Of a DNA stretch of 64,000 bases, positions 23,924 to 53,817 are shown in pieces (the stretch's first letter is position 1; each line of letters opens with the position of its first letter). This stretch comes from Kiritimatiellia bacterium. GTDB lineage: Bacteria > Verrucomicrobiota > Kiritimatiellia > JAAZAB01. The notes below the pieces were generated by a model that made no database searches, was not told the DNA's origin, and was given only the letters and a program-made list of their open reading frames with translations. Position numbers and translations under genes: made by a program. The DNA lies in contig JAXGPF010000010.1 in the NCBI GenBank assembly GCA_040767085.1, positions 173,133-237,132 on the forward strand, in the 5' to 3' direction.

Positions 23924-25309
23924 TGTTCGTAACAAGTCAAGTGTCCGCTTTTTGTAACAAGTGATCTGTCCGATTTGTTATTGTGTGTTGTTGCTCCTGG
24001 GGTGAGGATTTTCCTCCCCCGCGGGGGAGGAAAAAGTTTATGCGACGTCCTCCAGCGACGCCGAAATGTTCAACGGTCCTTGGTAGCGGCCAACCACATG
24101 CGGGCCATAACGGATGGACACCGTGCCATCGAGGTGCTCGCAGACTTTAACCCGGCACTTGGCGAAGCTGAAACGCCATTTTGATGGTCCAATCTGCAAG
24201 CGGCGACTCCCGACAGCCACGGTATTGTCATTTTGAACCTCTCGCGCATGCTGCACACAGAAAATGCTGTCCAAATCCTGCTCACCGCAAGGCACGAAAC
24301 ACGTTCCTGTTTCCCGCGCCTTCACCTTCATGTTGCGATTGAAGGAAGGCAGAAACTGTTGTTGAATATAGACGTTGGCCTCGGCCATCGTCCGGATTCC
24401 CGCCTGCCTTAATTCCTGCGGCAGGCGCCCTTGCCAGGTCTTAAACATCCGCTCTATTCGCCCACGTCCCTGGGGGCTATAGCTCGGAATATGTTCGATC
24501 CCCAACTGTTGCAACGCCCGTCCAATTTGCGTCAATTGACGCCGGTCCACCGCCCCGCCTTCTTTGGGCGTATAAAAGAAATGACTGCCACGATCCGTGT
24601 ACAGACTGCAGAAAACCCCATGTTTAATAATGACTTCTTTCAACCCCTTCATCACCGTTAATGTCCCTTCCTGGGGCACAAGATAGGCCGTGTAGACTTC
24701 GCTGGTGGCATCGTCCATCACCAGGATCAGATCCTGCTTCTGGCCCGCCAGCAGGGGCAACCAGGCATGGGTGCTGCCATCCACCATCAACATCATCCCC
24801 GCCATTGGTCGCCGTTCCCGCTGCTGCCGATGCGGCCCTCGTTTCCGGGCCTTCGCCACCAACCCGGCCGTCTGCAAGGCGCTCTTGACCCACTGATAAC
24901 TGAGCTCGATCCCATGCTCCGCCTGCAGCTTCTCGTGAAAATGCCTCACATTGAAATCCATGTATTCTTCTCGGTACAACCTCAGCACCTGCTTCACCGT
25001 CGCAAGGGGCACGCGCCGCGGCCCCGGTATCTTCCGCCGACGATCCAGCAGCCCGTCGTAACCATACCGCTCGTAGCGCCCTTTCCAGCGCCGCATGGTC
25101 CGGTAGCTCACACCTAGTATCTCCGCCGCCTCCCACCACATTAACCGCCCTTCAATCGCACGCAAGATCACTTCCTGTACCTTCATTGCCCGCTCCAGTG
25201 CTGCCTTCGGATATTCATCCATATAACCCCCCTTTGAATGCACCATCCTGACAGCTTTAAGCGGACAAATCATTTGTTAATTATGCGGCCAAGTCATTTG
25301 TTTACGACA
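23924..25309 (-). mobile_element. IS1202/ISNCY-type insertion sequence, copy 1 (1386 bp)
   Basis: Reverse complement of 39278-40663. TGT...ACA ends, imperfect TIRs, subterminal repeats. No matching target duplication in the flanks. Confidence 0.93.
24038..25222 (-). CDS. DDE transposase (ISNCY/IS1202 family)
   Basis: N-terminal HTH, VDGSTHAW, MDDATS, LYTDRGS, SPQGRGRIER..KTWQGRLP. Confidence 0.93.
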   Translation of the reverse strand: MDEYPKAALERAMKVQEVILRAIEGRLMWWEAAEILGVSYRTMRRWKGRYERYGYDGLLDRRRKIPGPRRVPLATVKQVLRLYREEYMDFNVRHFHEKLQAEHGIELSYQWVKSALQTAGLVAKARKRGPHRQQRERRPMAGMMLMVDGSTHAWLPLLAGQKQDLILVMDDATSEVYTAYLVPQEGTLTVMKGLKEVIIKHGVFCSLYTDRGSHFFYTPKEGGAVDRRQLTQIGRALQQLGIEHIPSYSPQGRGRIERMFKTWQGRLPQELRQAGIRTMAEANVYIQQQFLPSFNRNMKVKARETGTCFVPCGEQDLDSIFCVQHAREVQNDNTVAVGSRRLQIGPSKWRFSFAKCRVKVCEHLDGTVSIRYGPHVVGRYQGPLNISASLEDVA

Positions 25310-39167: not shown

Positions 39168-39364
39168 AAGTCATTGGCGGGCCGCTGCCCGGCGGTTCGC
39201 GGGATGCGCCCGACGGGGCGCGGCTTGACTAAATACTCGCATGCAAATCATGATTTTGCAAGGGCAAAGTCGCGGGGTGTCGTAAACAAATGACTTGGCC
39301 GCATAATTAACAAATGATTTGTCCGCTTAAAGCTGTCAGGATGGTGCATTCAAAGGGGGGTTAT

Positions 39365-40549
39365 ATGGATGAATATCCGAAGGCAGCACTGGAGCGGGCA
39401 ATGAAGGTACAGGAAGTGATCTTGCGTGCGATTGAAGGGCGGTTAATGTGGTGGGAGGCGGCGGAGATACTAGGTGTGAGCTACCGGACCATGCGGCGCT
39501 GGAAAGGGCGCTACGAGCGGTATGGTTACGACGGGCTGCTGGATCGTCGGCGGAAGATACCGGGGCCGCGGCGCGTGCCCCTTGCGACGGTGAAGCAGGT
39601 GCTGAGGTTGTACCGAGAAGAATACATGGATTTCAATGTGAGGCATTTTCACGAGAAGCTGCAGGCGGAGCATGGGATCGAGCTCAGTTATCAGTGGGTC
39701 AAGAGCGCCTTGCAGACGGCCGGGTTGGTGGCGAAGGCCCGGAAACGAGGGCCGCATCGGCAGCAGCGGGAACGGCGACCAATGGCGGGGATGATGTTGA
39801 TGGTGGATGGCAGCACCCATGCCTGGTTGCCCCTGCTGGCGGGCCAGAAGCAGGATCTGATCCTGGTGATGGACGATGCCACCAGCGAAGTCTACACGGC
39901 CTATCTTGTGCCCCAGGAAGGGACATTAACGGTGATGAAGGGGTTGAAAGAAGTCATTATTAAACATGGGGTTTTCTGCAGTCTGTACACGGATCGTGGC
40001 AGTCATTTCTTTTATACGCCCAAAGAAGGCGGGGCGGTGGACCGGCGTCAATTGACGCAAATTGGACGGGCGTTGCAACAGTTGGGGATCGAACATATTC
40101 CGAGCTATAGCCCCCAGGGACGTGGGCGAATAGAGCGGATGTTTAAGACCTGGCAAGGGCGCCTGCCGCAGGAATTAAGGCAGGCGGGAATCCGGACGAT
40201 GGCCGAGGCCAACGTCTATATTCAACAACAGTTTCTGCCTTCCTTCAATCGCAACATGAAGGTGAAGGCGCGGGAAACAGGAACGTGTTTCGTGCCTTGC
40301 GGTGAGCAGGATTTGGACAGCATTTTCTGTGTGCAGCATGCGCGAGAGGTTCAAAATGACAATACCGTGGCTGTCGGGAGTCGCCGCTTGCAGATTGGAC
40401 CATCAAAATGGCGTTTCAGCTTCGCCAAGTGCCGGGTTAAAGTCTGCGAGCACCTCGATGGCACGGTGTCCATCCGTTATGGCCCGCATGTGGTTGGCCG
40501 CTACCAAGGACCGTTGAACATTTCGGCGTCGCTGGAGGACGTCGCATAA
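39365..40549 (+). CDS. DDE transposase (ISNCY/IS1202 family)
   Basis: Identical protein to copy 1. G-rich RBS before MDEYPK. Confidence 0.93.
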   Translation: MDEYPKAALERAMKVQEVILRAIEGRLMWWEAAEILGVSYRTMRRWKGRYERYGYDGLLDRRRKIPGPRRVPLATVKQVLRLYREEYMDFNVRHFHEKLQAEHGIELSYQWVKSALQTAGLVAKARKRGPHRQQRERRPMAGMMLMVDGSTHAWLPLLAGQKQDLILVMDDATSEVYTAYLVPQEGTLTVMKGLKEVIIKHGVFCSLYTDRGSHFFYTPKEGGAVDRRQLTQIGRALQQLGIEHIPSYSPQGRGRIERMFKTWQGRLPQELRQAGIRTMAEANVYIQQQFLPSFNRNMKVKARETGTCFVPCGEQDLDSIFCVQHAREVQNDNTVAVGSRRLQIGPSKWRFSFAKCRVKVCEHLDGTVSIRYGPHVVGRYQGPLNISASLEDVA

Positions 40550-43501: not shown

Positions 43502-44878
43502 TCACATGGCGTTGGATTGTCGGAGCGCTTCCAGCCGCTGGCGCGCGTTGCGCGCGCGCACATCCGCCGGGAAACGCTCCAGGAACAACTCGTAATGCCG
43601 GATGGCCTGTTCCGCCAGGTTCAAGCTGCGGTCGTAAACCTGGATCAGCGACCAGAGAGCATTGGGATCATCCGGCCGCAGATTCACGGCGATTTTGAGG
43701 GAGACCAGCGCGGCGTCGTATTCCGACTGCTCCATGGCCACGCGCGCCAGGGCCAGGTGGGCCGCATACCACTGATCATCCAGGGCGACGGCCTTCTTGA
43801 AATGCAGCAGGGCCTCTTCCGGGCGGTTCTTTTCCAGGTAATACATGCCGACGTTGTAATGCGCCTTGGAATCTTCGCCGCAGGCGAGGGTGGCCGCGCG
43901 GAGCATGGCGCGGAACGTCTTCTCGTCGCCGGCGCGTTCCGCCGCCCGGACGGCCAGCAGGTAATGATTAACCGCGGCCTCCGCCCGGCCCTGGTTTTCC
44001 AGCAACCGCGCCGTGCGCGCCAGGTCGTCGGGGGAGGGCGGGGCGGGTTGGGCGGGGGCCGGTGCGGCGGCGGCTTCTTCCGGCGGCGGGACGCCGAACA
44101 GGGCGGCGGCATTCAGTTCGCGGTTTAATTCATCCATGGCCTGGGCCGCCAGTTCCATTTGACTGCGGCTGGCGCCGCTCAGGCGGGAATATTCATGAAA
44201 CAGCGAGCGCGCCTGGATCAGGTTATTCTGGCGGCGGCGCACCAGCGCCAGGTTATAAACGGCGGGGGGATAGGCCGGATCCTTTTCCAGGCATTGCTGC
44301 AAAAACCTGGCAGACTGGTCCAGGTTATCCGCCTGCAATTCCACCAAACCGAGCGCCGCCATGATGCGGGGCAGGTGCGGCTGGCGCCGGTGGGCTTCCA
44401 TCAGATAGCCGCGCGCCTGCGGCAGGTCGCCCATGCCGCGCCGGATGGCGCTCAGGTATTCCAGCGCCATGGTGTCATCCGACGCCAGGTCCGACGCCTT
44501 TAAAAACCATTCCTCCGCGGTGGCGGCCCGGTCGAGTTCCAGGTTGATCACGCCCAGGTTATACGCCGGTTCCGGCATGGTTGGGGCGAGATTATGGGCG
44601 GTGCCGAGGGCGACCATGGCATCGTCGGGCCGGCCGGCGCGCGCCAGGGCGATCCCCAGGTGGTTCTGCAGCAAAGCCGCGCGCGCCGGATCATTAGCCC
44701 TGCGCACAGCATACTGCAACTGCTCCACGGCGCGTTGCCAGTCGCCGTGTTCCAGGGCTTTTAATCCATTGTAAGAGGCCAACTTGTCGTCATTGCCGGC
44801 GCAACCTGTCAGAACCAGCGCCAGACAGATTGCTGCGGCAGCGCTGCTTCCGGCCGGTTTCGCGCAAATACTTGCCAT
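43502..44878 (-). CDS. Tetratricopeptide-repeat lipoprotein
   Basis: LTGC lipobox, repeated YNLG/NHLG/HYNVG TPR motifs. Confidence 0.85.
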   Translation of the reverse strand: MASICAKPAGSSAAAAICLALVLTGCAGNDDKLASYNGLKALEHGDWQRAVEQLQYAVRRANDPARAALLQNHLGIALARAGRPDDAMVALGTAHNLAPTMPEPAYNLGVINLELDRAATAEEWFLKASDLASDDTMALEYLSAIRRGMGDLPQARGYLMEAHRRQPHLPRIMAALGLVELQADNLDQSARFLQQCLEKDPAYPPAVYNLALVRRRQNNLIQARSLFHEYSRLSGASRSQMELAAQAMDELNRELNAAALFGVPPPEEAAAAPAPAQPAPPSPDDLARTARLLENQGRAEAAVNHYLLAVRAAERAGDEKTFRAMLRAATLACGEDSKAHYNVGMYYLEKNRPEEALLHFKKAVALDDQWYAAHLALARVAMEQSEYDAALVSLKIAVNLRPDDPNALWSLIQVYDRSLNLAEQAIRHYELFLERFPADVRARNARQRLEALRQSNAM

Positions 44879-45037
44879 GCCCAGGCACTCCGTGGTTGTA
44901 ATAATCAAAGCTCGCGTTATAATAGCGCAAACGACGTCATTGGCGCAACAAATTTAACAGGGCAGGGTGTAATTCATTCCGGACCAATCCTCCCGGATTT
45001 TGATGTTGCCCATGACGAGAGCGCCATTTGATTTTCG

Positions 45038-45114
45038 CGGGGCGTAGCGCAGTCTGGTAGCGCGACAGCTTTGGGAGCTGTAAGTCGTGGGTTCAAATCC
45101 CACCGCCCCGACCA
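45038..45114 (+). tRNA. tRNA-Pro (TGG)
   Basis: CGGGGCG/CGCCCCG acceptor stem, ACAGC-TTTGGGA-GCTGT anticodon arm, GGTTCAAATCC T arm, encoded CCA. Confidence 0.97.
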
Positions 45115-45258
45115 TACTTCGCTCGGAGCTACGTATGGCAAGCCATACTTCGCTCGGAGCGGAGCGACGAGCGAAGTATGCCCTACGTAGCACGGCACCG
45201 CGCCGGGCGAAGTAGGGCCGACTCGATGGTTCCCGCTCGGAGCTACGTATGGCAAGCC
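45112..45258. repeat. REP-like palindromic repeat cluster flanking the GIY-YIG remnant
   Basis: cgctcggagctacgtatggcaagcc at 45120-44 and 45234-58. catacttcgctc/gagcgaagtatg inverted pair. Related unit at 45481-45534. Confidence 0.8.
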
Positions 45259-45275
45259 AGCCTTCTGACAGAACC

Positions 45276-45533
45276 ATGCACCATGTCTACCTGCTCAGGA
45301 GTCTGGCCGAGCCCAAGCAGACATACATCGGCCTGACGGACGACATGCGGGCGCGGCTGAAGAGCCACAATGAGGGTGCCAACTTCCACACCGCCAAGTA
45401 CCGCCCTTGGGAACTGGTCTGCTGCATTTTGGGCTCCACCAACCGGAGGTACGGTTCAAACGAGCGCCAGTCACCCCGATCATGCTTCGCTTGGAGCCCT
45501 ACAAGGGATGAAAGCGAAGCATGCCCTGCGTAG
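45276..45533 (+). pseudogene. GIY-YIG nuclease (short YhbQ/UPF0213-like), C-terminus disrupted
   Basis: VYLLRS....QTYIGLTDD...RLKSHN.G...HT.KYRPWELV, after which similarity is lost. Confidence 0.75.
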
Positions 45534-45695
45534 CCTGGGCAGCAAATAGTCGGGCAGAATGCTGGTGTGCCCGCAATGGCGGCATAAGAAACGCGGAAGC
45601 GGAGGCGGTCGTTGCGTGGATCGTCCACCGTCGCATAAAGCCGACCTCGTAAGCAAGCGAGCAGGATAATCAATTGACAGTCAATGATTGGGCAT

Positions 45696-45724
45696 TTGAC
45701 AATGGGGCACATCGGAGTTATAAA
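45696..45724 (+). promoter_or_regulatory. Near-consensus sigma70 promoter (Pc-like) upstream of the cassette array
   Basis: TTGACA-17 nt-TATAAA. Confidence 0.65.
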
Positions 45725-45795
45725 ATACATAACTAAATCGGCTAGTCAGCTTTCACGAAGTAGGCTTAATAATACTGTTCTGCGGAGAGGAAAGA

Positions 45796-46269
45796 ATGGA
45801 TGATCAGAAGACAACGATAAACCCTCCTCTGTTTCTGGCGAGCACAACCATCGCCTGCTGGCGGTGCGGGGCGGACATGCCGGCGGTCGGCCTGATCGCT
45901 CCCAAAGTGCCGGATAATGAAGACGAAGTATGCATCCTGTCCGACATTACGGAACTCCCGCCGTCCGTCTTGGCCTTCGTCCAGAAACGTTTCCCCACGT
46001 TCAAGCGGAAGTTCTCGAAAACGACGCGGACCGAATACTACGCGAACACCTGTCCGAAGTGCGGGATCCTGTCTGGTGATTTCTACCTGCATTCGGAGCC
46101 GGGTGGCCCATTCTTCCCTGAATCGGAAGCCGACGCCGCCTGTCTGACGGTTGAACAGATCCCCCTGGAGGGCCCAATCGAGGTGGAGGCCGGGCTTGGC
46201 ATGGGTGGCGGAGACCTGATTCTGGAACACGGAAAGAAACGGACGCAGGAGGGTAAAGGTATCAGTTAA
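45796..46269 (+). CDS. Zn-ribbon hypothetical protein (cassette 1)
   Basis: CWRCG and YYANTCPKCG..SGDFYLHSEPGGPFFP. Recalls the C-terminal region of DUF5710 proteins (unverified). GGAGAGG RBS. Confidence 0.75.
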   Translation: MDDQKTTINPPLFLASTTIACWRCGADMPAVGLIAPKVPDNEDEVCILSDITELPPSVLAFVQKRFPTFKRKFSKTTRTEYYANTCPKCGILSGDFYLHSEPGGPFFPESEADAACLTVEQIPLEGPIEVEAGLGMGGGDLILEHGKKRTQEGKGIS

Positions 46270-46487
46270 GGATTCTTGTACTTTCTACCCGGTCAACCAA
46301 GGAAAACAGAAATACATTGCTTTTTAGTCCGGGAATCGCCTATCATCCGGCGTTGATGGAAAGTCCGGCCGGGATTACCATGGGGAAATTCCGAACCGAC
46401 CTGCCGAGCTCAACTGCCGTTCGCCCCGAAACCGAGCTTCCGGTCTCTGTCAGTTGCACTCAACAGTTCGCCGTTCGCCAGACCAGA

Positions 46488-47042
46488 ATGAAGACTGAGA
46501 AGGCAAGAGGGAATAGCCGAGCGACGAGAACGGACATGAGGGTCTTCATGTCCCTGCTCGAACTGTACGACGTGTGCTTGCTCAATGCTGACGACTTACT
46601 GAACGAGGCGCGCTTGCTCCTCAGTCACGGCCATGTTGCCCGCGCGTTCGCGCTTGCCTACACCGGATGGGAAGAGGTAGGGAAAGCCCAACTCGTCGGT
46701 GACTACGCGAACGACATGGTCTCTGAGGAGGAGTTCGAAGCCGCTTTCAGAGATCACAACCTTAAGTCCGCATACAACTGGCGACAGTTCGTCTTGAACA
46801 CCAAAGACATTGGTGCATCGACGATTCAGTATGATCGCGCCCGTGCAAAAGAGGCATTTGAAAAACGACAGGCAGCCTTCTACGTGGGAAAGGATGCTCA
46901 TCTGAAGCCTCTGAAACCCGATGCGGGAGTGACCAAGGAGGAATCTGAAAAGGTGATCCGAGCACTTGCCTCGGAACTGAAGCAGATCAGGGAGGCGGAT
47001 GCGTTCACGGAAAGGATCGGTTCAGCCTCGTTTCTGAAATAG
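46488..47042 (+). CDS. AbiV family abortive-infection (HEPN) protein (cassette 2)
   Basis: CL.NA..LL.EA.LL....H..RA.ALA....EE.GKA, FRDH..K, KRQ.AFYV. Start must lie after the cassette boundary at 46473. Confidence 0.82.
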   Translation: MKTEKARGNSRATRTDMRVFMSLLELYDVCLLNADDLLNEARLLLSHGHVARAFALAYTGWEEVGKAQLVGDYANDMVSEEEFEAAFRDHNLKSAYNWRQFVLNTKDIGASTIQYDRARAKEAFEKRQAAFYVGKDAHLKPLKPDAGVTKEESEKVIRALASELKQIREADAFTERIGSASFLK

Positions 47043-47045
47043 AAG

Positions 47046-47115
47046 GGCGAACAACGCGTCGCTCCCTATTCGCAGTCCGCGCCGGGCTGCTCAAGGGAGA
47101 ACGCGGACGTTGGGA
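47046..47115 (+). other. attC site
   Basis: GGCGAAC (complement of GTTCGCC at 46473) ... imperfect stem acgcgtcgctccct/agggagaacgcg with gcag/ctgc inner stem ... GTTGGGA. Confidence 0.8.
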
Positions 47116-47128
47116 GCAAGGGGGCAAT

Positions 47129-47764
47129 ATGACACCGCTTGATTACGACACCGATCAGAACCTGATCAAGTCATACAACTTCCCGATCATGGTCAAGAGG
47201 GCGGTCCAAGAGATGCAGGGCATGGCAGCGGCCATGATTTATGACGGGCGCTTGGATGACGTTGAGATCAACCTGATGAGTGACTGGCTCAATCGCCACA
47301 TCGTGGAGGCCGGTGATTGGCCCCTCTCGGACCTTGTGGCTATTCTCAAGAATGTCCTCGCAGACGGCGTGGTTACCGAACAGGAAAGACTCAATCTCCT
47401 CAACTTTCTCGCCCAGTTCGCCGCTGGCCCCCAACAGCCAGAAGTCATTCAAGGCATTTTCGACTCTGACGCAAAGATCATTTTCCCAGGCCAGATGTTC
47501 CTGTTCACCGGCAAACTGGTCTTCGGCACACGTAAGAAGGCGGAAAATGCCGTCGTGGCGCGTGGAGGATCAATCGCCCCAGCATCGGTTACAGGTGATC
47601 TCAACTACCTTGTGGTGGGTGAGCTTGGAAGCGAGGCCTGGAAGTTCAGCCGATTCGGATCAAAGATCGAAAAGGCTATGCAAATGCGGAAGACCGGCAA
47701 AACACATTCTTTCATTGTTCAGGAGAAACGTTTCGTTCAAGCTGTGATCGAAGCAGGAACATGA
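47129..47764 (+). CDS. TerB-like + BRCT domain protein (cassette 3)
   Basis: M..DG.L...E...L..WL, L.DG.VT..E, then FTGKL..GTR..AE..V..RGG.....VT..LNYLVVG......W..S.FGSKIEKA. Confidence 0.8.
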   Translation: MTPLDYDTDQNLIKSYNFPIMVKRAVQEMQGMAAAMIYDGRLDDVEINLMSDWLNRHIVEAGDWPLSDLVAILKNVLADGVVTEQERLNLLNFLAQFAAGPQQPEVIQGIFDSDAKIIFPGQMFLFTGKLVFGTRKKAENAVVARGGSIAPASVTGDLNYLVVGELGSEAWKFSRFGSKIEKAMQMRKTGKTHSFIVQEKRFVQAVIEAGT

Positions 47765-47767
47765 AGC

Positions 47768-47833
47768 TTCCAACCAGGCCTTCCTGGCTATCGGCACCCC
47801 GGGGTTGCCTCAGCCAGAAGGCTGACATTGGCC
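47768..47833 (+). other. attC site with mutated core (ATT instead of GTT)
   Basis: TTCCAAC ... gccttcctggct/agccagaaggc and ggca/tgcc stems ... gacATTGGCC. Confidence 0.7.
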
Positions 47834-47837
47834 GAGA

Positions 47838-48926
47838 GTGAAGAGGGCGACCCCAAACGCAAATATGAGAGACGCAAAACGAAATGTGATGATCGACATC
47901 GTGGGCGACGTACCCGAAAGGTTGCGCCATGTTTTCAAGTTCTACGGCATTCCCACTCTGGCAGAGCGGTTCGCGTCCCTGCCACAAGTCATCACCACGG
48001 CCTTGAGCGTATTGCCCAACGACGGAGTGAAGAAGGCCGATCTTTCGACCTTAGTGCGAAACCGAAGTGGTTTGTCAGACGTTTTAATCAGAAAACCGGA
48101 ACTTCTGCAGGCCTATTTGGAAGCGTTCGAAGCTGCACTCACGCAGCTGGAAAAAAACGGGCAGATTACGGCATATGGTGATTTTGTTGTCCACCACAAG
48201 AGGCAAACTAAACATGGCGAGGATGTCGCGCTACGGGAGATAACGGACACGCCCCCGGAGAGCCCTGAAGATGTCCGGCGCCCTGAGCCGAACACCGGTC
48301 TTCTGCGTAGGTCTTCTAGCCACCTTCCAACCATCCCTAACTTATCCGAAGCTTTGCCCACCGAGCAATCACAATTTGCCGAAGTTCCACGCGCCCCTTT
48401 GGACGCCGATGCGCAGAAACAACTGGCGATTTTGGCGAACGAGGTAACGGAAGACGCAGCCCCCACAGCGCCAGAGAATAAACAGCAGCAAACGCCACCA
48501 TCGCTTGTACCCCCAGACCCTCTGAGCCACTTGAAAACACTGATTGAGAAAGAACTTGGCGTTAGTGTGCAGAAACGGCTCAATGAAATCTCCCTCTCTG
48601 AGATTGTCCCAGGCTGTTCTTGTGACTGCACTCTATCCTTGCAGTCGGCGGGCACAGAATTAGAGATCAAAGCCGTGTTTCCTCTTGTCATAGATTGCAC
48701 CATTGAACTTCTCGAGATGGCCGAGGCGGAGCGTCTTTGCAGCAATCTTGGGGTTGCGACTGCTCACGGAGACCGTGTGGTAATTATTCGCAAGTCCGTT
48801 GACTTACGACGGCATGAACCGGCCGAACTCCATGCACTCAGCGCAAAGGTCCTTCAAGAAGTCGTGAAAGTCGCTAAGGTTATTTACGACGGTGAACGTT
48901 TTCGAGACAAATCTCGTACAATGTGA
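47838..48926 (+). CDS. Hypothetical protein, gene 1 of the overlapping three-gene operon
   Basis: 362-aa ORF: folded N-terminus, Pro-rich linker, C-terminal alpha/beta domain. Alternative starts at 47865 and 47889. Confidence 0.75.
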   Translation: MKRATPNANMRDAKRNVMIDIVGDVPERLRHVFKFYGIPTLAERFASLPQVITTALSVLPNDGVKKADLSTLVRNRSGLSDVLIRKPELLQAYLEAFEAALTQLEKNGQITAYGDFVVHHKRQTKHGEDVALREITDTPPESPEDVRRPEPNTGLLRRSSSHLPTIPNLSEALPTEQSQFAEVPRAPLDADAQKQLAILANEVTEDAAPTAPENKQQQTPPSLVPPDPLSHLKTLIEKELGVSVQKRLNEISLSEIVPGCSCDCTLSLQSAGTELEIKAVFPLVIDCTIELLEMAEAERLCSNLGVATAHGDRVVIIRKSVDLRRHEPAELHALSAKVLQEVVKVAKVIYDGERFRDKSRTM

Positions 48927-49407
48927 AGAAACATTGCGGAAGGCAAAAGCCGTCGACCGAATCACGCGGCTGCTTACGTTAGGCCTATTTTCACGCGAAG
49001 CGAAGGTTACCGAGGCCCAACGGGCGTGCTATTCTGCGAAGACCCAACGCGATCAGTTCAATGAGTTTACGGCCCACGCTACGAATCTTGACGACCAGTT
49101 ACTGCAAACCGTCGAATTGCATGGCGTAAGGGTTAGTCGAAATACCTTTGCGGATTTTACGCGGCTTGGTGCAGAAGGATATCCGGTGGACTGGGAGAGT
49201 ATCAGACGGTCCGTATTGGAGCGTGACGGTTTTCAGTGTACTGAAGCAGCTGGTAGGTGCGATGGCCCCCTCCAGATTCACCACATCGTGCCCCTCAGTC
49301 GAGGCGGAACGAACCGGCTTGAGAATCTTGTAACACTGTGCCTCTACCACCACTGCACAAAACATGAACATTTGAGGGCAAAATACTATGGAAGTCTACG
49401 GCGCTGA
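48892..49407 (+). CDS. HNH endonuclease
   Basis: YP.DW..IR..VLERD.FQC...C...L.IHHIVPLSRGG.N..ENL.TLC..HH...H. Confidence 0.9.
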   Translation: MNVFETNLVQCEETLRKAKAVDRITRLLTLGLFSREAKVTEAQRACYSAKTQRDQFNEFTAHATNLDDQLLQTVELHGVRVSRNTFADFTRLGAEGYPVDWESIRRSVLERDGFQCTEAAGRCDGPLQIHHIVPLSRGGTNRLENLVTLCLYHHCTKHEHLRAKYYGSLRR

Positions 49408-51217
49408 CATTGACGGTATCGAAGGACAACTTATCCGCTTTGCCGCCACCAAGGACGAGAACCGGCAAGGGGTTACACTCCTTGGCCTTGCAAAACAGGT
49501 TGTGAGAGAGGGATTCAGTCGCGTCGCCAAGGCAGTTGAGACCTTGGATGGTGATTGGTCGTCGATTCTCACCGATCAGGGATACACCGTTCAACTGGCT
49601 CCACCTGACGTGCCGAAGGTTTCCGCTGGCCTTGATTTGCCGCTCGCAATCATGCTGCTGTACGCAAGCATACTCCAAAATCTTGACACACTCGCAGATC
49701 AAATCACAAAGCTGAATGATGAGGCGGCCAAAGCCACGGACCGGAAAAACGGGGAAGAGATTCGACATCGGTTGCTCGACACCATCGAGAATCTTGTTCG
49801 GCAGCGGGAGCTGATTCTTAAGTACCGAGAACGCCTTACCGCAAATGATGGCAAGTACCTTCTCATCGGGACTCTCGACATTTGCACAGGCAATCTTGCG
49901 CCCCCACAGTACGGTATATTCGGCATGATCTCCGCCGCGCAACCCGGTTTCACGGTCATCATCCCAGAGGACTCACGGATTCACGGAGCCGTCATAGGCA
50001 AGAGCCGGCCAGACATCCGCGTACATGTTGCCAAAAACCTCCGAGAGGTTTGGTACGTTGTTCTTGGCGTCAACAGGCCCCGACCAGCCACATACAAGAT
50101 GTCCGACATTCGCCGCAAACGGCTTTGTCACTACGTCCCGGACTTACGTGCAATCGATGGTGTTGCTCGTGCTAAGAAGGCAATGGTAGTCGCCCTCGCT
50201 GGCGGTCACAACATGCTAATGGTTGGTCCACCCGGACAGGGCAAGACGATGCTGTGCAAGGCTGCGACGGACCTGCTGCCGCGCCTTACGCATGTCGAAA
50301 TGTTTGAGGTGAACAAGGTTTTCAGTGCTGCTGGGGAACTCCGGGCTGATGAAGTAGTGCTTGATAGACCATTCCAAACTGCGACGAATGACGCGACAGA
50401 CAAAGCCATCTTCGGCGGCGGCCACCGTCCGCCGTTGCCGGGCATCGTGTCGCTTGCGCACAATGGCGTTCTCCTTCTTGATGAAATTAACACCTTCAAA
50501 TCTCACATCACGCAACAACTCCGAATCACACTAAGCGACCGCATTCAGAAGGTACAGCGACTCGGAGCCACAATCGAATACCCGTGCAGATTCATCCTCT
50601 TTGCCGCAATGAATCCCTGCAAGTGCGGTTGGTATGGACACTTTCATTGCTCCTCATGCAAGGCCATCTACATCGATCCCGACGTACGCTGTGCCTGTGG
50701 CAATAGTAAGCTCCTGCCAAAGTGCCACTGCTCGCGTCGAGATGTATCGGCGTTCCGTGACCGATTGAGCGGCCCACTACTCCGCCTGCAGGTACTACTT
50801 GACAGGATTGATCTTAAAGTGCTGGTCTCTGCATATGACGCCGAATTGGGCACCTATGACACAACGTCAAACAGTGTGAGACGGCGGATAGAGGGTGCGC
50901 GGAAGATTCAGGGCGAGAGATATGCTGACTCCGTCTTCGGCATCTGCAACGCACATGTTCCTGACCGTTCGCAGTTCGAGAAGTTCTGCCCTTCACTGAG
51001 TTCATCGGTTTCCGAGCTTGTTGATCAACACACCCGACGCATCGGCACAAAGCGAATGGAAGTTAATCTACTTCTTGTTGCGAGAACCATAGCCGACCTG
51101 AACGAAAGCCGACACATCTCTATGGATCATGTACACGAGGCCGTGAACCTGATGGGATTGGAGAGTCCCTACTTCTCTGACAGATTGCACGAAGGCAATA
51201 TGTCACGGATATGGTAG
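49388..51217 (+). CDS. Divergent ComM/YifB-like (Mg-chelatase/MCM-type) AAA+ ATPase
   Basis: LAPPDVPK...LDLPLA, GGHNMLMVGPPGQGKT, SLAHNGVLLLDE, AAMNPCKCG, SGPLL...DRIDL, VARTIADL. Confidence 0.9.
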   Translation: MEVYGADIDGIEGQLIRFAATKDENRQGVTLLGLAKQVVREGFSRVAKAVETLDGDWSSILTDQGYTVQLAPPDVPKVSAGLDLPLAIMLLYASILQNLDTLADQITKLNDEAAKATDRKNGEEIRHRLLDTIENLVRQRELILKYRERLTANDGKYLLIGTLDICTGNLAPPQYGIFGMISAAQPGFTVIIPEDSRIHGAVIGKSRPDIRVHVAKNLREVWYVVLGVNRPRPATYKMSDIRRKRLCHYVPDLRAIDGVARAKKAMVVALAGGHNMLMVGPPGQGKTMLCKAATDLLPRLTHVEMFEVNKVFSAAGELRADEVVLDRPFQTATNDATDKAIFGGGHRPPLPGIVSLAHNGVLLLDEINTFKSHITQQLRITLSDRIQKVQRLGATIEYPCRFILFAAMNPCKCGWYGHFHCSSCKAIYIDPDVRCACGNSKLLPKCHCSRRDVSAFRDRLSGPLLRLQVLLDRIDLKVLVSAYDAELGTYDTTSNSVRRRIEGARKIQGERYADSVFGICNAHVPDRSQFEKFCPSLSSSVSELVDQHTRRIGTKRMEVNLLLVARTIADLNESRHISMDHVHEAVNLMGLESPYFSDRLHEGNMSRIW

Positions 51218-51291
51218 GATTGAGAAATGAAAGTAGACCGCTCTAACAACTGCTTCCAAAGCGCCCGAAATTGGCGAGTGCATCTTCCATA

Positions 51292-51471
51292 GAGAAACTC
51301 CCGACACTGTCGGGAAAATCCGAGATTGCGCAGACGGTGTTTGCACAATCGCTTGCTTCGTCCTTTCCTCTTTCCTAATCCCATTATGTCCGCTTGATCT
51401 CGGTTAATAATCCATTAGCCAGGGCCTTCTATGAGGCCGAGGCGATCCGGGGCGGCTGGTCGGTGCGCCAG
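51292..51471 (+). pseudogene. Internal fragment of a YhcG/DUF1016 (PD-(D/E)XK nuclease-associated) gene
   Basis: Translates ...QTVFAQS..SFPLS*SHYVRLISVNNPLARAFYEAEAIRGGWSVRQ. Stop at 51376 where W is expected. Confidence 0.75.
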
Positions 51472-51495
51472 AGCCGTTGCGTTTGTAATGTGGCA

Positions 51496-51718
51496 ATTTG
51501 CTCCCCATTTGCTCCCCATTAGCGCCCCAAAGCGCTTCAATAGCGCCCCAAGATGGGGAGGAGCAAATTAATGCTCATGCAGGCTTGCCGTGCCGGATTT
51601 TGCCTGAATTGTATATCTTTGACTACAAGCATATTACAAAATATGATGGAGCGGGCTAGTCTGGCGGGCAGGCGAATTTGCCGCTAAACGGCAAGTTTTT
51701 GCTCCTCATTTGCTCCCC
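51496..51718. repeat. 11-bp direct repeats (atttgctcccc family)
   Basis: Exact copies at 51496, 51507 and 51708. Variants at 51518, 51539 and 51697. Inverted variant near 51555-68. Confidence 0.75.
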
Positions 51719-51974
51719 ATGTCGGAGATATGGTAGTTACGGCTAAATTTAAAGGGGTTTATCGAAATCATGGTTGGGTATCGGCCGGAATCTTGACAAA
51801 CAAAAACCGATATGCCATCTTTTAAATCATCGTTGGAGGGATGGATTAAGGATATCTCACAAAGTCGCCAAACTGCCAAGAAAACCTGCCTTGCCATGCG
51901 ATAATTCGGTGAAACCATTGCAAAACCAACTCAATCCTTCTCCGTCAGCACCGGCGCGCCGGGAATTGAATGAA

Positions 51975-52550
51975 ATGTCGGTTTTGTTCCCCCTGCTTTC
52001 GATTTACACGGTTGGTTTCCTGGCCTTGTCTGCGGCGGATTTCCTGCTGGGGCCAGCGCTGGATTTGCCGGAAGGCATGATGCCGCTTTATATTGCCCTC
52101 CTCGGCGCTTATGCCACGGACAAGGAAATCCGGCGCTGGATCGGCCTGACCGAGCCGCCGCGCAAGGGCACGATTTTTGTCTATCTCTGGCTCTTGCTGT
52201 ACCTGGGTTTTTACCTGGTCCAAGTTTTCAAGCCTAACTATGCCATGCCGCCGCACATGCTGTCGGTATGCCTCCAGGTACTGGGGATATTTTTCGGCAG
52301 CAAAACATCCAAGTATCTCCATTCGAATCGTACCAGCCGGCAGGAGGTTGAGTCCGACCGCCGCCGACAGGTGCTGGAAATGATCAAGGCGCAGGGCAGA
52401 ATAACCCGGCAAATGGTGGAACAGGAATTGCGGATTTCCTCTTCTCATGCCAGCCGGCTTCTCCAGACCATGGAACGCGCCGGGTTGATCGTCAGACACG
52501 GCTCATCCCGCAGTACGCATTACACGGCGGCGGAGACGGGACAATCATAA
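51975..52550 (+). CDS. Membrane protein with C-terminal winged-helix HTH
   Basis: About 4 hydrophobic segments, then VLEMIK..G.ITR..V...L.IS...ASR.L..M...G.I..HG..R.T.Y. Confidence 0.75.
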   Translation: MSVLFPLLSIYTVGFLALSAADFLLGPALDLPEGMMPLYIALLGAYATDKEIRRWIGLTEPPRKGTIFVYLWLLLYLGFYLVQVFKPNYAMPPHMLSVCLQVLGIFFGSKTSKYLHSNRTSRQEVESDRRRQVLEMIKAQGRITRQMVEQELRISSSHASRLLQTMERAGLIVRHGSSRSTHYTAAETGQS

Positions 52551-52743
52551 TCGCCAGCCTGATCAATCATTGCATAATAAGGTTGCCAATTCAACCCAAC
52601 TCGCAATGCGTACAATATTGTGTGCGTTAATCAGGCTGGTGCTTTATACGCGTTGCTATTAAACCAGAATATTATTGTAAAATATTGCATTATAAATACA
52701 ATTCGCTTTTTATAAGTAGATAATAATATCTTTTCTGTTTGCC

Positions 52744-53817
52744 ATGGAGCAGAAATATCAACGGGTGGCGGAACTGATCAGGGATGATTGCCGGCGGCGC
52801 AATCTGCCGACGGAGGCATATCTGCCGACGGAAGTTGAGTTGGCGGCTTCCTTCAAGGTGAACCGGCTGACGGTGCGGCGGGCGTTGAAACACCTGGAAA
52901 ACCAGCGGATCGTTTCGCCTGTGACCGGCAAGCGGCGGCGGTTGCTGGCCGCCGCCGGGCCGGCGCCCAAAACCAGCCTGGTGGCCTGTCTCGGGCGCAG
53001 CAGTTCTTCCCCGGCCGGCACTTTCGGCAACCTGGTGTTTGCCCGCATGTTTGAACACATGGCCCGGGTGTTTCAAGCTTCAAATTTAAGCTTGCTGGGC
53101 ATCCCGATCGACGTCTCAGTAACAAAACCGCCCGAAGTTGTCTTCAGTTCCCTGATGAAAGCCCTGCTGGTGTTTGAATCCCTGCCGCGGAGCTTTGCGC
53201 TGCCGGATGTCCATATACCGGTAATTACCGTGAATCCCCCTCCCAATAGTTGCATTCAAGCTGATTTTAAAATTGATTTTGACTCTTTCGGTCTGTCCGG
53301 CCAGGCAGTGGCCAAGCTGTCGGAACTGGGGCATCGCCGGATGGTCTGGGTGGAGTGGGCGGACCGCGGTCTCGGAACTTTCGCGGTAGAGCGGACCGGC
53401 TACGAAAGCGCGTTGAAGCGCATTGGCCTGAATCCGCCGGTTTACCTGGAAATCGAAAATTTCCCGGCGCCGGATCTGATCAAGGTTCAACTCCAGATTC
53501 AGCGGCTCATCCGCGAGCGGCCGGATGTGGACGGATTCATCACCGCCAGCAGCGACTTGAATCCGTTTTTAATGGCCGGGTTGTCCGCCGTGGGCGTGGC
53601 GGTGCCGGAGCAGGCATCGGTGCTGGCGCTGGCCGGGCAGGAGCCTTCCGCCGGCGCCCGCCATGTTTCCGGTTATTACAATGATTATCCGGCGATTGCC
53701 GAAACGATTTGCGAATATACGCGCCTGATCATTGCCGGACAGGTCAAAAATGTCGATCGGATCACTCTGGGTAAAAACCGCTGGGAGCCGGGCGAAACAG
53801 TGCGCAAGCGTAATTGA
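52744..53817 (+). CDS. GntR-HTH + LacI-type sensor domain transcriptional regulator
   Basis: KYQRV...LPTEVELAASFKVNRLTVRRAL, L..LGHRR, ER..GY..AL, G..VPE..SV. Confidence 0.88.
   Translation: MEQKYQRVAELIRDDCRRRNLPTEAYLPTEVELAASFKVNRLTVRRALKHLENQRIVSPVTGKRRRLLAAAGPAPKTSLVACLGRSSSSPAGTFGNLVFARMFEHMARVFQASNLSLLGIPIDVSVTKPPEVVFSSLMKALLVFESLPRSFALPDVHIPVITVNPPPNSCIQADFKIDFDSFGLSGQAVAKLSELGHRRMVWVEWADRGLGTFAVERTGYESALKRIGLNPPVYLEIENFPAPDLIKVQLQIQRLIRERPDVDGFITASSDLNPFLMAGLSAVGVAVPEQASVLALAGQEPSAGARHVSGYYNDYPAIAETICEYTRLIIAGQVKNVDRITLGKNRWEPGETVRKRN

Follow-up and report, generated by a model that had tools for sequence, protein, structure and literature searches.

A rare three-gene module with an HNH nuclease and a ComM-like ATPase, in a variable defence island beside a tRNA gene, is probably an undescribed restriction-like anti-phage system

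What is a relative of the ATPase ComM doing in overlapping genes with an HNH nuclease? The question is raised by three genes in a 64,000-nucleotide (nt) stretch of DNA from a Kiritimatiellia bacterium (GenBank assembly GCA_040767085.1, contig JAXGPF010000010.1, positions 173,133 to 237,132 of the forward strand), which is referred to here as the window. The genes encode a protein outside the recognised families (gene 1), an HNH nuclease (gene 2) and a long-form ComM/YifB-like ATPase (gene 3). A preliminary description of this DNA had proposed that a ComM paralogue was co-opted as sensor or motor for an HNH effector. Our analysis supports this proposal through the paralogy of the ATPase, its separate clade, the conservation of the trio and its defence-gene context. 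The module, which is rare and lies in a variable defence island next to a transfer RNA (tRNA) gene, is probably an undescribed restriction-like anti-phage system, and we favour, with moderate confidence, the reading that the trio is one self-contained, horizontally moving module that restricts phages and plasmids.

Organisation and conservation of the trio

The three genes are co-oriented open reading frames (ORFs) on the + strand, at 47838..48926 (362 amino acids (aa)), 48892..49407 (171 aa) and 49388..51217 (609 aa). Gene 1 and the HNH gene overlap by 35 nt and the HNH and ATPase genes by 20 nt, and the G+C content across the trio is 0.52-0.55, compared with 0.60-0.66 in the flanks and most of the window; the ORF coordinates and base composition agree on both points with what had been described before. 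Gene 1 more likely starts at the ATG at 47889 than at the GTG at 47838, judging from the database form of the protein, which has 345 aa, and from a 62%-identical relative (P0002) that aligns from there. The features of the trio are as follows.

47889..48926, + strand: gene 1, proposed modular adaptor/targeting protein, 345 aa from the ATG (the longest ORF, from GTG 47838, has 362 aa)
47937..48200, + strand: predicted winged helix of gene 1 (345-aa form, residues 17-104; AlphaFold, VIA-align)
48510..48899, + strand: predicted C-terminal domain of gene 1, similar to YbjN and type III secretion system chaperones, residues 208-337 (model, Foldseek, VIA)
48892..49407, + strand: gene 2, 171 aa, HNH nuclease whose N-terminal helical region is family-specific (PF01844)
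49388..51217, + strand: gene 3, long-form ComM/YifB-like AAA+ ATPase, 609 aa (PF01078, PF13335, PF13541)
49682..49843, + strand: clade-specific helical-hairpin insert in the Lon-like domain of the ATPase, residues 99-152 (alignment, model)
50630..50722, + strand: clade-specific Cys-rich insert in the embedded Zn finger of the ATPase, about residues 415-445 (alignments)
50777..50794, + strand: polymorphic 18-nt in-frame insert (LLRLQV) by the LLDRID motif of the ATPase (alignment, run contigs)

Whether the trio is conserved elsewhere had been left as a check, and the answer is that it is. In species-representative genomes an alignment of the ATPase found at least two loci of its clade, one in a Sedimentisphaerales metagenome-assembled genome (MAG; locus L006) and one in a Hydrogenedentota MAG (L007), both with the order gene 1-HNH-ATPase. 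A metagenome scan with an alignment of the HNH protein found 18 loci, one of which (L057) is identical to L006. The clade ATPase lies immediately downstream of the HNH gene in 13 of the 13 metagenome loci that extend beyond it, the other five of the 18 ending no more than 76 nt past the HNH stop or inside the HNH gene. An abutting, co-oriented gene-1 ORF (307-554 aa where complete) is found in all 16 loci with upstream DNA, relatedness being taken from its BLASTP match (E<=1e-3) to another locus's gene 1, and the exact 20-nt overlap of the HNH and ATPase genes recurs in 10 of 16 loci. Among 46 flanking ORFs from 8 loci there were zero BLASTP matches between loci. The trio is therefore the unit, and the candidate of a fourth gene in the module was ruled out.

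The clade is sporadic in its distribution. The clade ATPase was not found in any of the 400 other genomes sampled from the window's phylum, two of which belong to the same genus, in any of 400 others from the phylum of L006 or in any of 134 others from that of L007, i.e. in none of 934 genomes from three phyla, searched at E<=1e-80 with the top candidates per genome scored. Searches of PLSDB (72,556 plasmid records) and INPHARED (50,697 phage records) by tblastn gave no clade member, only canonical-type ComM at no more than 37% identity, and a scan of IMG/VR with the HNH alignment gave 25 loci that share the catalytic core only, with the clade ATPase in none. Metagenomes from 8 studies, on landfill, sludge, digesters and biofilm, contained near-identical DNA, and contigs from four of the runs contained no joint skipping the island. 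The hosts of the module are for the most part uncultured bacteria in metagenomes of landfill, sludge and digesters, and screens centred on E. coli and Bacillus may have missed it for this reason and because it was absent from the plasmid and phage collections searched.

The preliminary description had expected that defence-system models would make no call, and PADLOC-DB 2.0.0 made none for gene 1 or the ATPase: gene 1 and six of its relatives matched 0 families, and the ATPases had weak generic AAA+ matches (E 3.9e-5 or worse). We found no paper that links ComM, YifB or chelatase-like ATPases with an HNH nuclease in defence, although supplements could list such a system; within the same limit, the sections available of PMC7159879, PMC12839542, PMC13092281 and bioRxiv 10.1101/2025.09.30.679545 do not mention one.

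The three proteins

Is the ATPase simply the ComM of its host? It has the full three-domain set of ComM/YifB (PF13541, 5.6e-10; PF01078, 3.4e-58; PF13335, 3e-15), in which a Lon-like N-terminal domain is followed by a Mg-chelatase-type AAA+ domain and a C-terminal chelatase domain, and on this architecture it is a ComM/YifB protein. Its scores nevertheless lie below the NCBIfam equivalog cut-offs (TIGR00368, 282 vs 362.4 bits; NF007365, 170 vs 530), and PHROGs gave nothing specific to it. The motifs on which catalysis depends are intact: Walker A (GPPGQGKT), Walker B (LLLDE), AAMNPC and VARTIADL, all listed in the preliminary description, were found again, and in an alignment of 20 long-form clade members with four canonical ComM proteins the Walker A and B motifs, the sensor-1 residue N409, R473 and the Ps1-beta arginine R391 vary little or not at all within the clade.

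The ATPase had also been described as having gained a coiled-coil insert of about 60 aa and an extra Cys cluster within its Zn site, and as having RPFQTATN in place of RPFRxPHH. The replacement is seen in the alignment, and the RPFQ variant is clade-wide. The two inserts are real as well: the Lon-like domain contains about 55 additional residues, modelled by AlphaFold as a helical hairpin (H99-116 and H122-152), and the Zn site contains the Cys-rich stretch CSSC...CAC, whose clade-invariant C421, C424 and C435 are extra to the C411, C446 and C448 held in common with canonical ComM. What did not stand is the idea of a gain in this gene, since the hairpin is present in 20 of 20 clade members and in 0 of 4 canonical ComM proteins and the Cys-rich stretch is likewise clade-wide in the 20 members aligned. 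Recent gain of the inserts by this gene was therefore ruled out, and the aligned sequences indicate that the remodelling is ancient and clade-wide.

The 18-nt insert encoding LLRLQV, by contrast with these, is unique to the window among the 24 aligned sequences. It contains CCTGCAGG and has CTACT repeats on both sides; it is present in the contigs of run X3 and absent from those of runs X1, X2 and X4, and the ATPase model has a predicted local distance difference test score (pLDDT) below 50 at residues 463-467, in the region of the insert. Either strains differ in the insert or the assemblies do.

Besides the ATPase gene, the host genome (G000) has a comM of canonical form, 511 aa long, on another contig (PF01078, 326 bits vs 179 for the island copy); a canonical comM was found elsewhere in all three trio genomes checked, i.e. 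the host, L006 and L007. A search of 5.8 billion proteins returned at least 114 long-form clusters (585-605 aa; fragments in addition) with identities of 42-81% and scores of 327-1131 bits, after which there was a gap in score down to canonical ComM proteins of 507-511 aa at no more than 250 bits and about 32% identity. Phylogeny, too, placed the ATPase apart from housekeeping ComM. A quick IQ-TREE run on 41 sequences split 26 long-form proteins from 15 canonical ones, including the host's own, with a Shimodaira-Hasegawa-like approximate likelihood-ratio test (SH-aLRT) value of 100, and three clade rows that had been left out of the preset group label were still placed inside the clade. Because it fails the tests of equivalog cut-off, housekeeping role and phylogenetic grouping, we treat the ATPase as a separate ComM/YifB subfamily; in these sequence comparisons it is an extra paralogue belonging to a long-form clade of its own.

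The closest solved relative of the ATPase is ComM, both by sequence (2.3e-46) and by fold, its AlphaFold model (pLDDT 85.8) matching Legionella ComM (8rxt_A) with a Foldseek E of 2.9e-33 and a template modelling (TM) score of 0.85 on the target. Likeness to ComM/YifB (PDB 8RXD, 8RXT) extends to the ATPase and Ps1-beta residues, which are kept. The long form differs from it, however, in its identity of 27-36%, in a score below the TIGR00368 cut-off, in its 55-aa hairpin, in the second Cys cluster of its zinc finger and in the loss of RPFRxPHH, and the island ATPase differs in being an extra copy that lies in a variable island and is coupled to an HNH nuclease and gene 1 at the loci examined. 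In the available sections of PMC11612176, ComM is a two-tier hexamer with an embedded zinc finger that holds double-stranded DNA in a 24 Å channel, contacts it via Ps1-beta and H2i loops and has a known role in recombination. By analogy with this solved structure, and from the conserved motifs, the long-form ATPase would be expected to form a hexameric ring capable of translocation or branch migration on DNA.

A specialised recombination, repair or competence helicase, i.e. a variant of housekeeping ComM with accessory factors, would also have the fold and domain order of ComM overall. We regard this explanation as very improbable, since a canonical comM is present in each of the three genomes, the clade is absent from the 934 other genomes sampled in three phyla, the score is under the YifB equivalog cut-off, and the gene lies in a low-G+C, variable slot after a tRNA gene.

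The HNH protein matches PF01844 at 7.3e-8, above the cut-off of the family. Residues H130, H131, N141, N145, H153, H154, H158, C116, C123 and C150 are invariant in 17 relatives; the metal and zinc ligands are among them, and the protein fits a beta-beta-alpha-metal core with a zinc site of Cys and His, metal ligands of the Asn/His kind and a catalytic His. The protein is 37-82% identical to its counterparts in other loci (40% for that of L006, E 4e-47), and its N-terminal 95 residues are specific to this family. Its catalytic core (residues about 95-165) is weakly similar to Zorya II ZorE (7.5e-5) and to a DpdF-linked HNH protein (5.6e-9), and there is also weak likeness of the core to Cas8f-HNH (7.9e-6) and McrA (2e-4). 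Unlike the HNH effectors of Zorya, Dpd and Cas systems, however, it has an N-terminal region of its own, and no ZorA/B, Dpd or Cas genes lie nearby.

Gene 1 matched no Pfam, PADLOC, NCBIfam or PHROG family, and a protein atlas search gave no usable match. A profile search of 1.84 billion representatives gave 295 proteins at E<=1e-3, and the best 150 of these comprised 76 with the core N-terminal and C-terminal domains, 18 with the C-terminal domain only and 56 with the core only, inside other proteins. The AlphaFold model of gene 1 (mean pLDDT 69) has two ordered parts, a winged helix at residues 17-104 (pLDDT 74-89), which resembles the winged helices of cullin WHB, histone H1/H5 and Rpa2 (VIA-align Z 7.5-9.3), and, at the C-terminus, an alpha-beta domain at residues 208-337 (pLDDT 72-89), which is the part kept across gene-1 relatives. 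The linker is disordered in the model and acidic in 14 of 14 relatives, with a conserved [IV]PDLPE motif. The modelled alpha-beta domain is similar in fold to type III secretion chaperones, DR_1245 and AmyR/YbjN, with VIA Z scores of 10-11.4 across 112-130 residues and Foldseek E values from 2.6e-4 to 1e-2 (TM 0.47-0.62 on the target). It differs from these in that the identity is 8-20%, with no match to them at the level of sequence, and in that a winged helix and an acidic linker belong to the same protein; secretion genes are absent. The common fold is no proof of a common function.

Gene 1 diverges faster than its partners: in 21 pairs taken from 7 loci its median pairwise identity is 21%, vs 39% for the HNH protein and 49% for the ATPase. 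Its relatives carry a variety of N-terminal heads. Among 43 gene-1-family proteins scanned, six have Mrr_N, one each has HARE-HTH, a receiver domain (REC) and DUF4357, and two (P0126, P0128) have NusA_N, P0128 together with two topoisomerase-type zinc ribbons. Gene 1 of L006 has an EVE head and that of L056 has Sel1. NusA_N heads were also found in gene 1 of L051 (4940-6004), L052 (273-1313) and L053 (171-1220), at 55-59 bits vs a cut-off of 23.8. In this NusA_N branch (L051-L053, P0126 and P0128; 50-59 bits overall) the head replaces the winged helix. Mrr_N, EVE and HARE-HTH are typical of type IV restriction enzymes and of readers of modified DNA, and the N-terminal domain of NusA binds RNA polymerase. 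The core winged helix of gene 1 is also the extreme C-terminus of proteins of 950-1700 aa that combine a superfamily 1 (SF1) helicase (AAA_11/AAA_12) with REase_MTES_1575 (P0225, P0245, P0251, P0263, P0270). Gene 1 had been put forward as adaptor or regulator, and the predicted winged-helix and chaperone-like folds and the swapped heads fit this role.

The same fold bears on a different explanation, that the trio is a toxin-antitoxin or abortive-infection module in which the HNH protein is a toxin that gene 1 silences with its chaperone-like domain; the ATPase would have protein as its substrate and would release or activate the nuclease on a phage cue, with damage to self DNA in place of selective restriction. 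Type III secretion chaperones and YbjN bind partner polypeptides, the linker is acidic throughout the 14 relatives, the genes of the trio overlap, and AbiV, PIN and Fic genes occur nearby; according to the available part of PMC7159879, YifB belongs to the MoxR clade, whose members are otherwise protein remodellers. However, the ATPase retains the DNA-contacting Ps1-beta arginine and the two-tier architecture of ComM, which encloses double-stranded DNA (PMC11612176, in the sections available), and the Mrr_N, EVE and HARE-HTH heads point to the recognition of nucleic acid. We consider this explanation unlikely, although it is the one among the alternatives to which we give most weight.

Proposed mechanism and relation to known systems

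Under the favoured reading, of a restriction-like system, gene 1 would be the targeting and adaptor subunit. Its winged helix would recognise the target, the added heads of its relatives (Mrr_N, EVE, HARE-HTH, NusA_N, REC) would take part in this recognition, and the acidic linker and chaperone-like domain could hold or dock the partner proteins. Like ComM, the long-form ATPase would form a ring of two tiers on double-stranded DNA, and it would translocate at the expense of ATP; the HNH nuclease, brought by adaptor and motor, would cut foreign DNA. On this account the three proteins would form a complex whose ring moves on DNA in response to a target or signal read by gene 1, with defence as the outcome. 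A complex prediction for ATPase residues 1-250, the HNH protein and gene 1 residues 140-345 gave scores of 0.25 and 0.15 with gene 1 as the partner, against a mark of 0.32, in runs without controls, and does not bear on the complex either way.

A fuller version of this mechanism, which we put forward only tentatively, is that a ComM-derived ring translocase may be the motor of an unrecognised three-component immune family, in which a chaperone-like adaptor couples the HNH nuclease to the ring and carries interchangeable sensor heads, including readers of modified DNA. In the NusA_N branch, motor and nuclease might be anchored to RNA polymerase during transcription, so that foreign DNA would be surveyed as it is transcribed.

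Among known systems the same logic of motor, nuclease and reader is found in McrBC-type type IV restriction, in which an AAA+ ring serves as motor, the nuclease is a protein of its own, the DNA reader can be swapped and there is no methyltransferase. Relatives of gene 1, like type IV enzymes, have Mrr_N, EVE and HARE-HTH heads. The differences are that the motor of the trio belongs to the ComM/chelatase clade and is not McrB, that its nuclease is HNH and not the PD-(D/E)xK enzyme McrC, and that its reader is a separate protein with a chaperone-like domain. In PADLOC, no McrB or McrC model matched any trio protein and no mREase_IV model matched gene 1 or the ATPase; the HNH protein weakly matches one mREase_IV model (PDLC03656, 2.7e-4). 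BrxL of the bacteriophage exclusion (BREX) system is a defence ATPase that, like the ATPase of the trio, joins a Lon-like domain to an AAA+ ring of the minichromosome maintenance (MCM)/chelatase-like kind, in its case an MCM-like ring that acts on DNA. No BrxL model was among the PADLOC matches of the window ATPase (E<=0.01) or of two relatives (E<=1e-4), and the Pfam and PADLOC scans of the window contained no other BREX genes. The sections available of a BREX survey (PMC12839542) make no mention of ComM or YifB.

Several points weigh against a restriction-like system. The conservation of the trio was surveyed mainly from the HNH side, the ATPase side giving at least two loci. Gene 1 of the window has the core winged helix only, with no modified-DNA reader head recognised, and this winged helix is near neutral (net +1), whereas 7 of the 14 relatives compared have a strongly basic one (+7 to +19); for these two reasons DNA binding by gene 1 of the window is an assumption. 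Since the heads are heterogeneous (NusA_N, REC, Sel1), a single modified-DNA target is unlikely for the whole family. The 18-nt insert by LLDRID, missing in three of the four runs, could impair the window copy of the ATPase, none of the 22 runs listed with near-identical DNA is an RNA run, and two of seven independent long loci (L060, L063) have only mobile-element or replication genes near them. In silico there is good support for placing the trio, as a candidate, within NTPase-nuclease immunity that uses a modular reader.

To our knowledge, ComM has so far been known only as the recombination motor of natural transformation. If the reading is correct, a new motor family would be added to the NTPase-nuclease immune systems, and another path would be traced from the machinery of DNA repair to immunity. 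The trio would then be a compact three-gene system for testing how a ring translocase on double-stranded DNA is aimed at foreign DNA, and the swapping heads of gene 1, including NusA_N, would lend themselves as a natural series to the question of what is sensed by systems of this kind.

The island and its neighbourhood

The trio lies in a low-G+C block that begins directly after a tRNA gene. The features around the trio that bear on its setting are the following.

45038..45114, + strand: tRNA-Pro(TGG), left border of the low-G+C island (tRNA/Rfam scan, drop in G+C)
46317..47042, + strand: AbiV-family gene, a neighbouring defence gene outside the trio (PF18728, 3.1e-21; PADLOC AbiV, 8.7e-5)
47779..47840, no strand assigned: imperfect hairpin 5' of gene 1, previously described as an attC site (folding vs shuffles)

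The tRNA is the sole Rfam match over 44800-52900. In two same-genus genomes the left flank and tRNA-Pro are conserved, at 79-98% identity, whereas the DNA 3' of tRNA-Pro is unrelated to that of the window except for 120-244 nt of repeats, and the two congeners share nothing with each other there either beyond repeats. In one of them the slot (L106; G320:C10:400-12500) encodes HmaA (9.8e-145), PDC-S01, a cyclase of the cyclic-oligonucleotide-based anti-phage signalling system (CBASS; 1.2e-114) and HmaB (4.5e-106); in the second it is occupied by metabolic genes. The tRNA-Pro gene is a defence-island hot spot in the genus.

The trio had been described as starting right after an attC site, and its neighbours as integron cassettes. 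Neither claim was confirmed. Folded as the bottom strand, the 47765-47837 spacer forms an imperfect hairpin of -17.6 kcal/mol (z -2.0), and 7 of 200 shuffled sequences are as stable; the next spacer, 47043-47128, folds at chance level (z -0.9; 39 of 200). No integron integrase scored over the TIGR02249 cut-off in the 95%-complete genome (best 101 bits vs 265), a repeat scan revealed no repeated spacer family, and the block begins at a tRNA gene. Five or six small co-oriented units without clear internal promoters (scans for promoters and terminators gave nothing above shuffles, with 5 promoter sites vs 4.2 expected) and imperfect inverted repeats ending in CAAC...TTGG in two spacers are what one would expect of cassettes, whether in an integron or in an attC cluster that lacks an integrase. 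This account, which concerns the context of the trio only, is nonetheless improbable given hairpins at or near chance, the lack of an integrase above cut-off, the tRNA border and the absence of a repeated spacer family. From the tRNA border, the unrelated slots of the congeners and the weak attC and integrase data we conclude that the trio is in a tRNA-linked variable defence-island slot and not demonstrably in an integron, and the low-G+C block is better described as a tRNA-linked island.

That the trio keeps company with known defence genes, another of the checks proposed in the preliminary description, was borne out. Upstream of it in the window is the AbiV gene, as had been reported. Between this gene and the trio, a 211-aa protein (47129-47764) had been called a BRCT cassette: it has weak NCBIfam matches (6e-7 to 3e-4) to the C-terminal part of LigA and PolIII-epsilon models, which we take to be the BRCT domain, the likeness to LigA being in its own C-terminal half, but no Pfam family at E<=0.01, and it strongly matches phrog_3989, a family of unknown function (3.2e-46). 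In L006, IetA and IetS lie directly downstream of the trio (2.8e-72 and 7.9e-29); L007 has an Mrr type IV enzyme (5.4e-87) and an SNase-type candidate, along with two integrases, an HTH_17 protein and a D5-type primase. L051 has Fic and PIN as neighbours and L054 has HSDR_N, SWIM and PIN, while a resolvase and a relaxase lie beside the trio in L063, and in L060 its neighbours are a Cas4-like nuclease and a DNA polymerase of family A. With a variable neighbourhood, known defence genes and sporadic occurrence, the setting is that of a defence island, in a small sample of seven independent long loci.

The neighbours in L007, L063 and L060 could also be read as signs that the trio serves mobile elements themselves, whether in processing DNA for transfer, replication or recombination, in homing by the HNH nuclease with the help of a branch-migration motor, or in the exclusion of competitors, and the known role of ComM in recombination (PMC11612176, in the sections available) would suit such a function. 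On the other hand, no clade member was found in the 72,556 plasmid or 50,697 phage records, where matches reached no more than 37% identity, or in the 25 IMG/VR loci, the flanks differ at every locus, and the ORF and Pfam scan of the window found no integrase, relaxase or replication gene in its island. Defence systems are common cargo of mobile elements, and the mobile-element context therefore discriminates poorly. A selfish or maintenance function is in our view unlikely, slightly more so than a toxin-antitoxin module, and restriction remains the reading that we prefer.

Several minor elements lie in the island and beyond it. After tRNA-Pro (45115-45545), paired 32-nt repeats at 45120 and 45234 are 94% identical, and together with hairpins at 45113-45180 and 45481-45523 they flank a short GIY-YIG ORF (45249-45533; PF01541, 2.2e-9); apart from about 120 nt of this repeat region, the island has no DNA in common with one congener. 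Downstream of the trio, a 550-nt non-coding stretch contains the 11-nt unit TTTGCTCCCCA in 3-4 tandem copies at 51486-51530 and again 190 nt further on, at 51698-51720 (repeat family D1); the array could be iteron-like or protein-binding. Just before it, 51413-51480 resembles what we take to be the start of a YhcG/DUF1016-type nuclease ORF, and may be a gene remnant at the right side of the island. Elsewhere in the window, two 411-aa ORFs in opposite orientation (24038-25273, - strand; 39314-40549, + strand), each with a nested 171-aa ORF and in a patch of lower G+C, are probably two copies of an insertion sequence.

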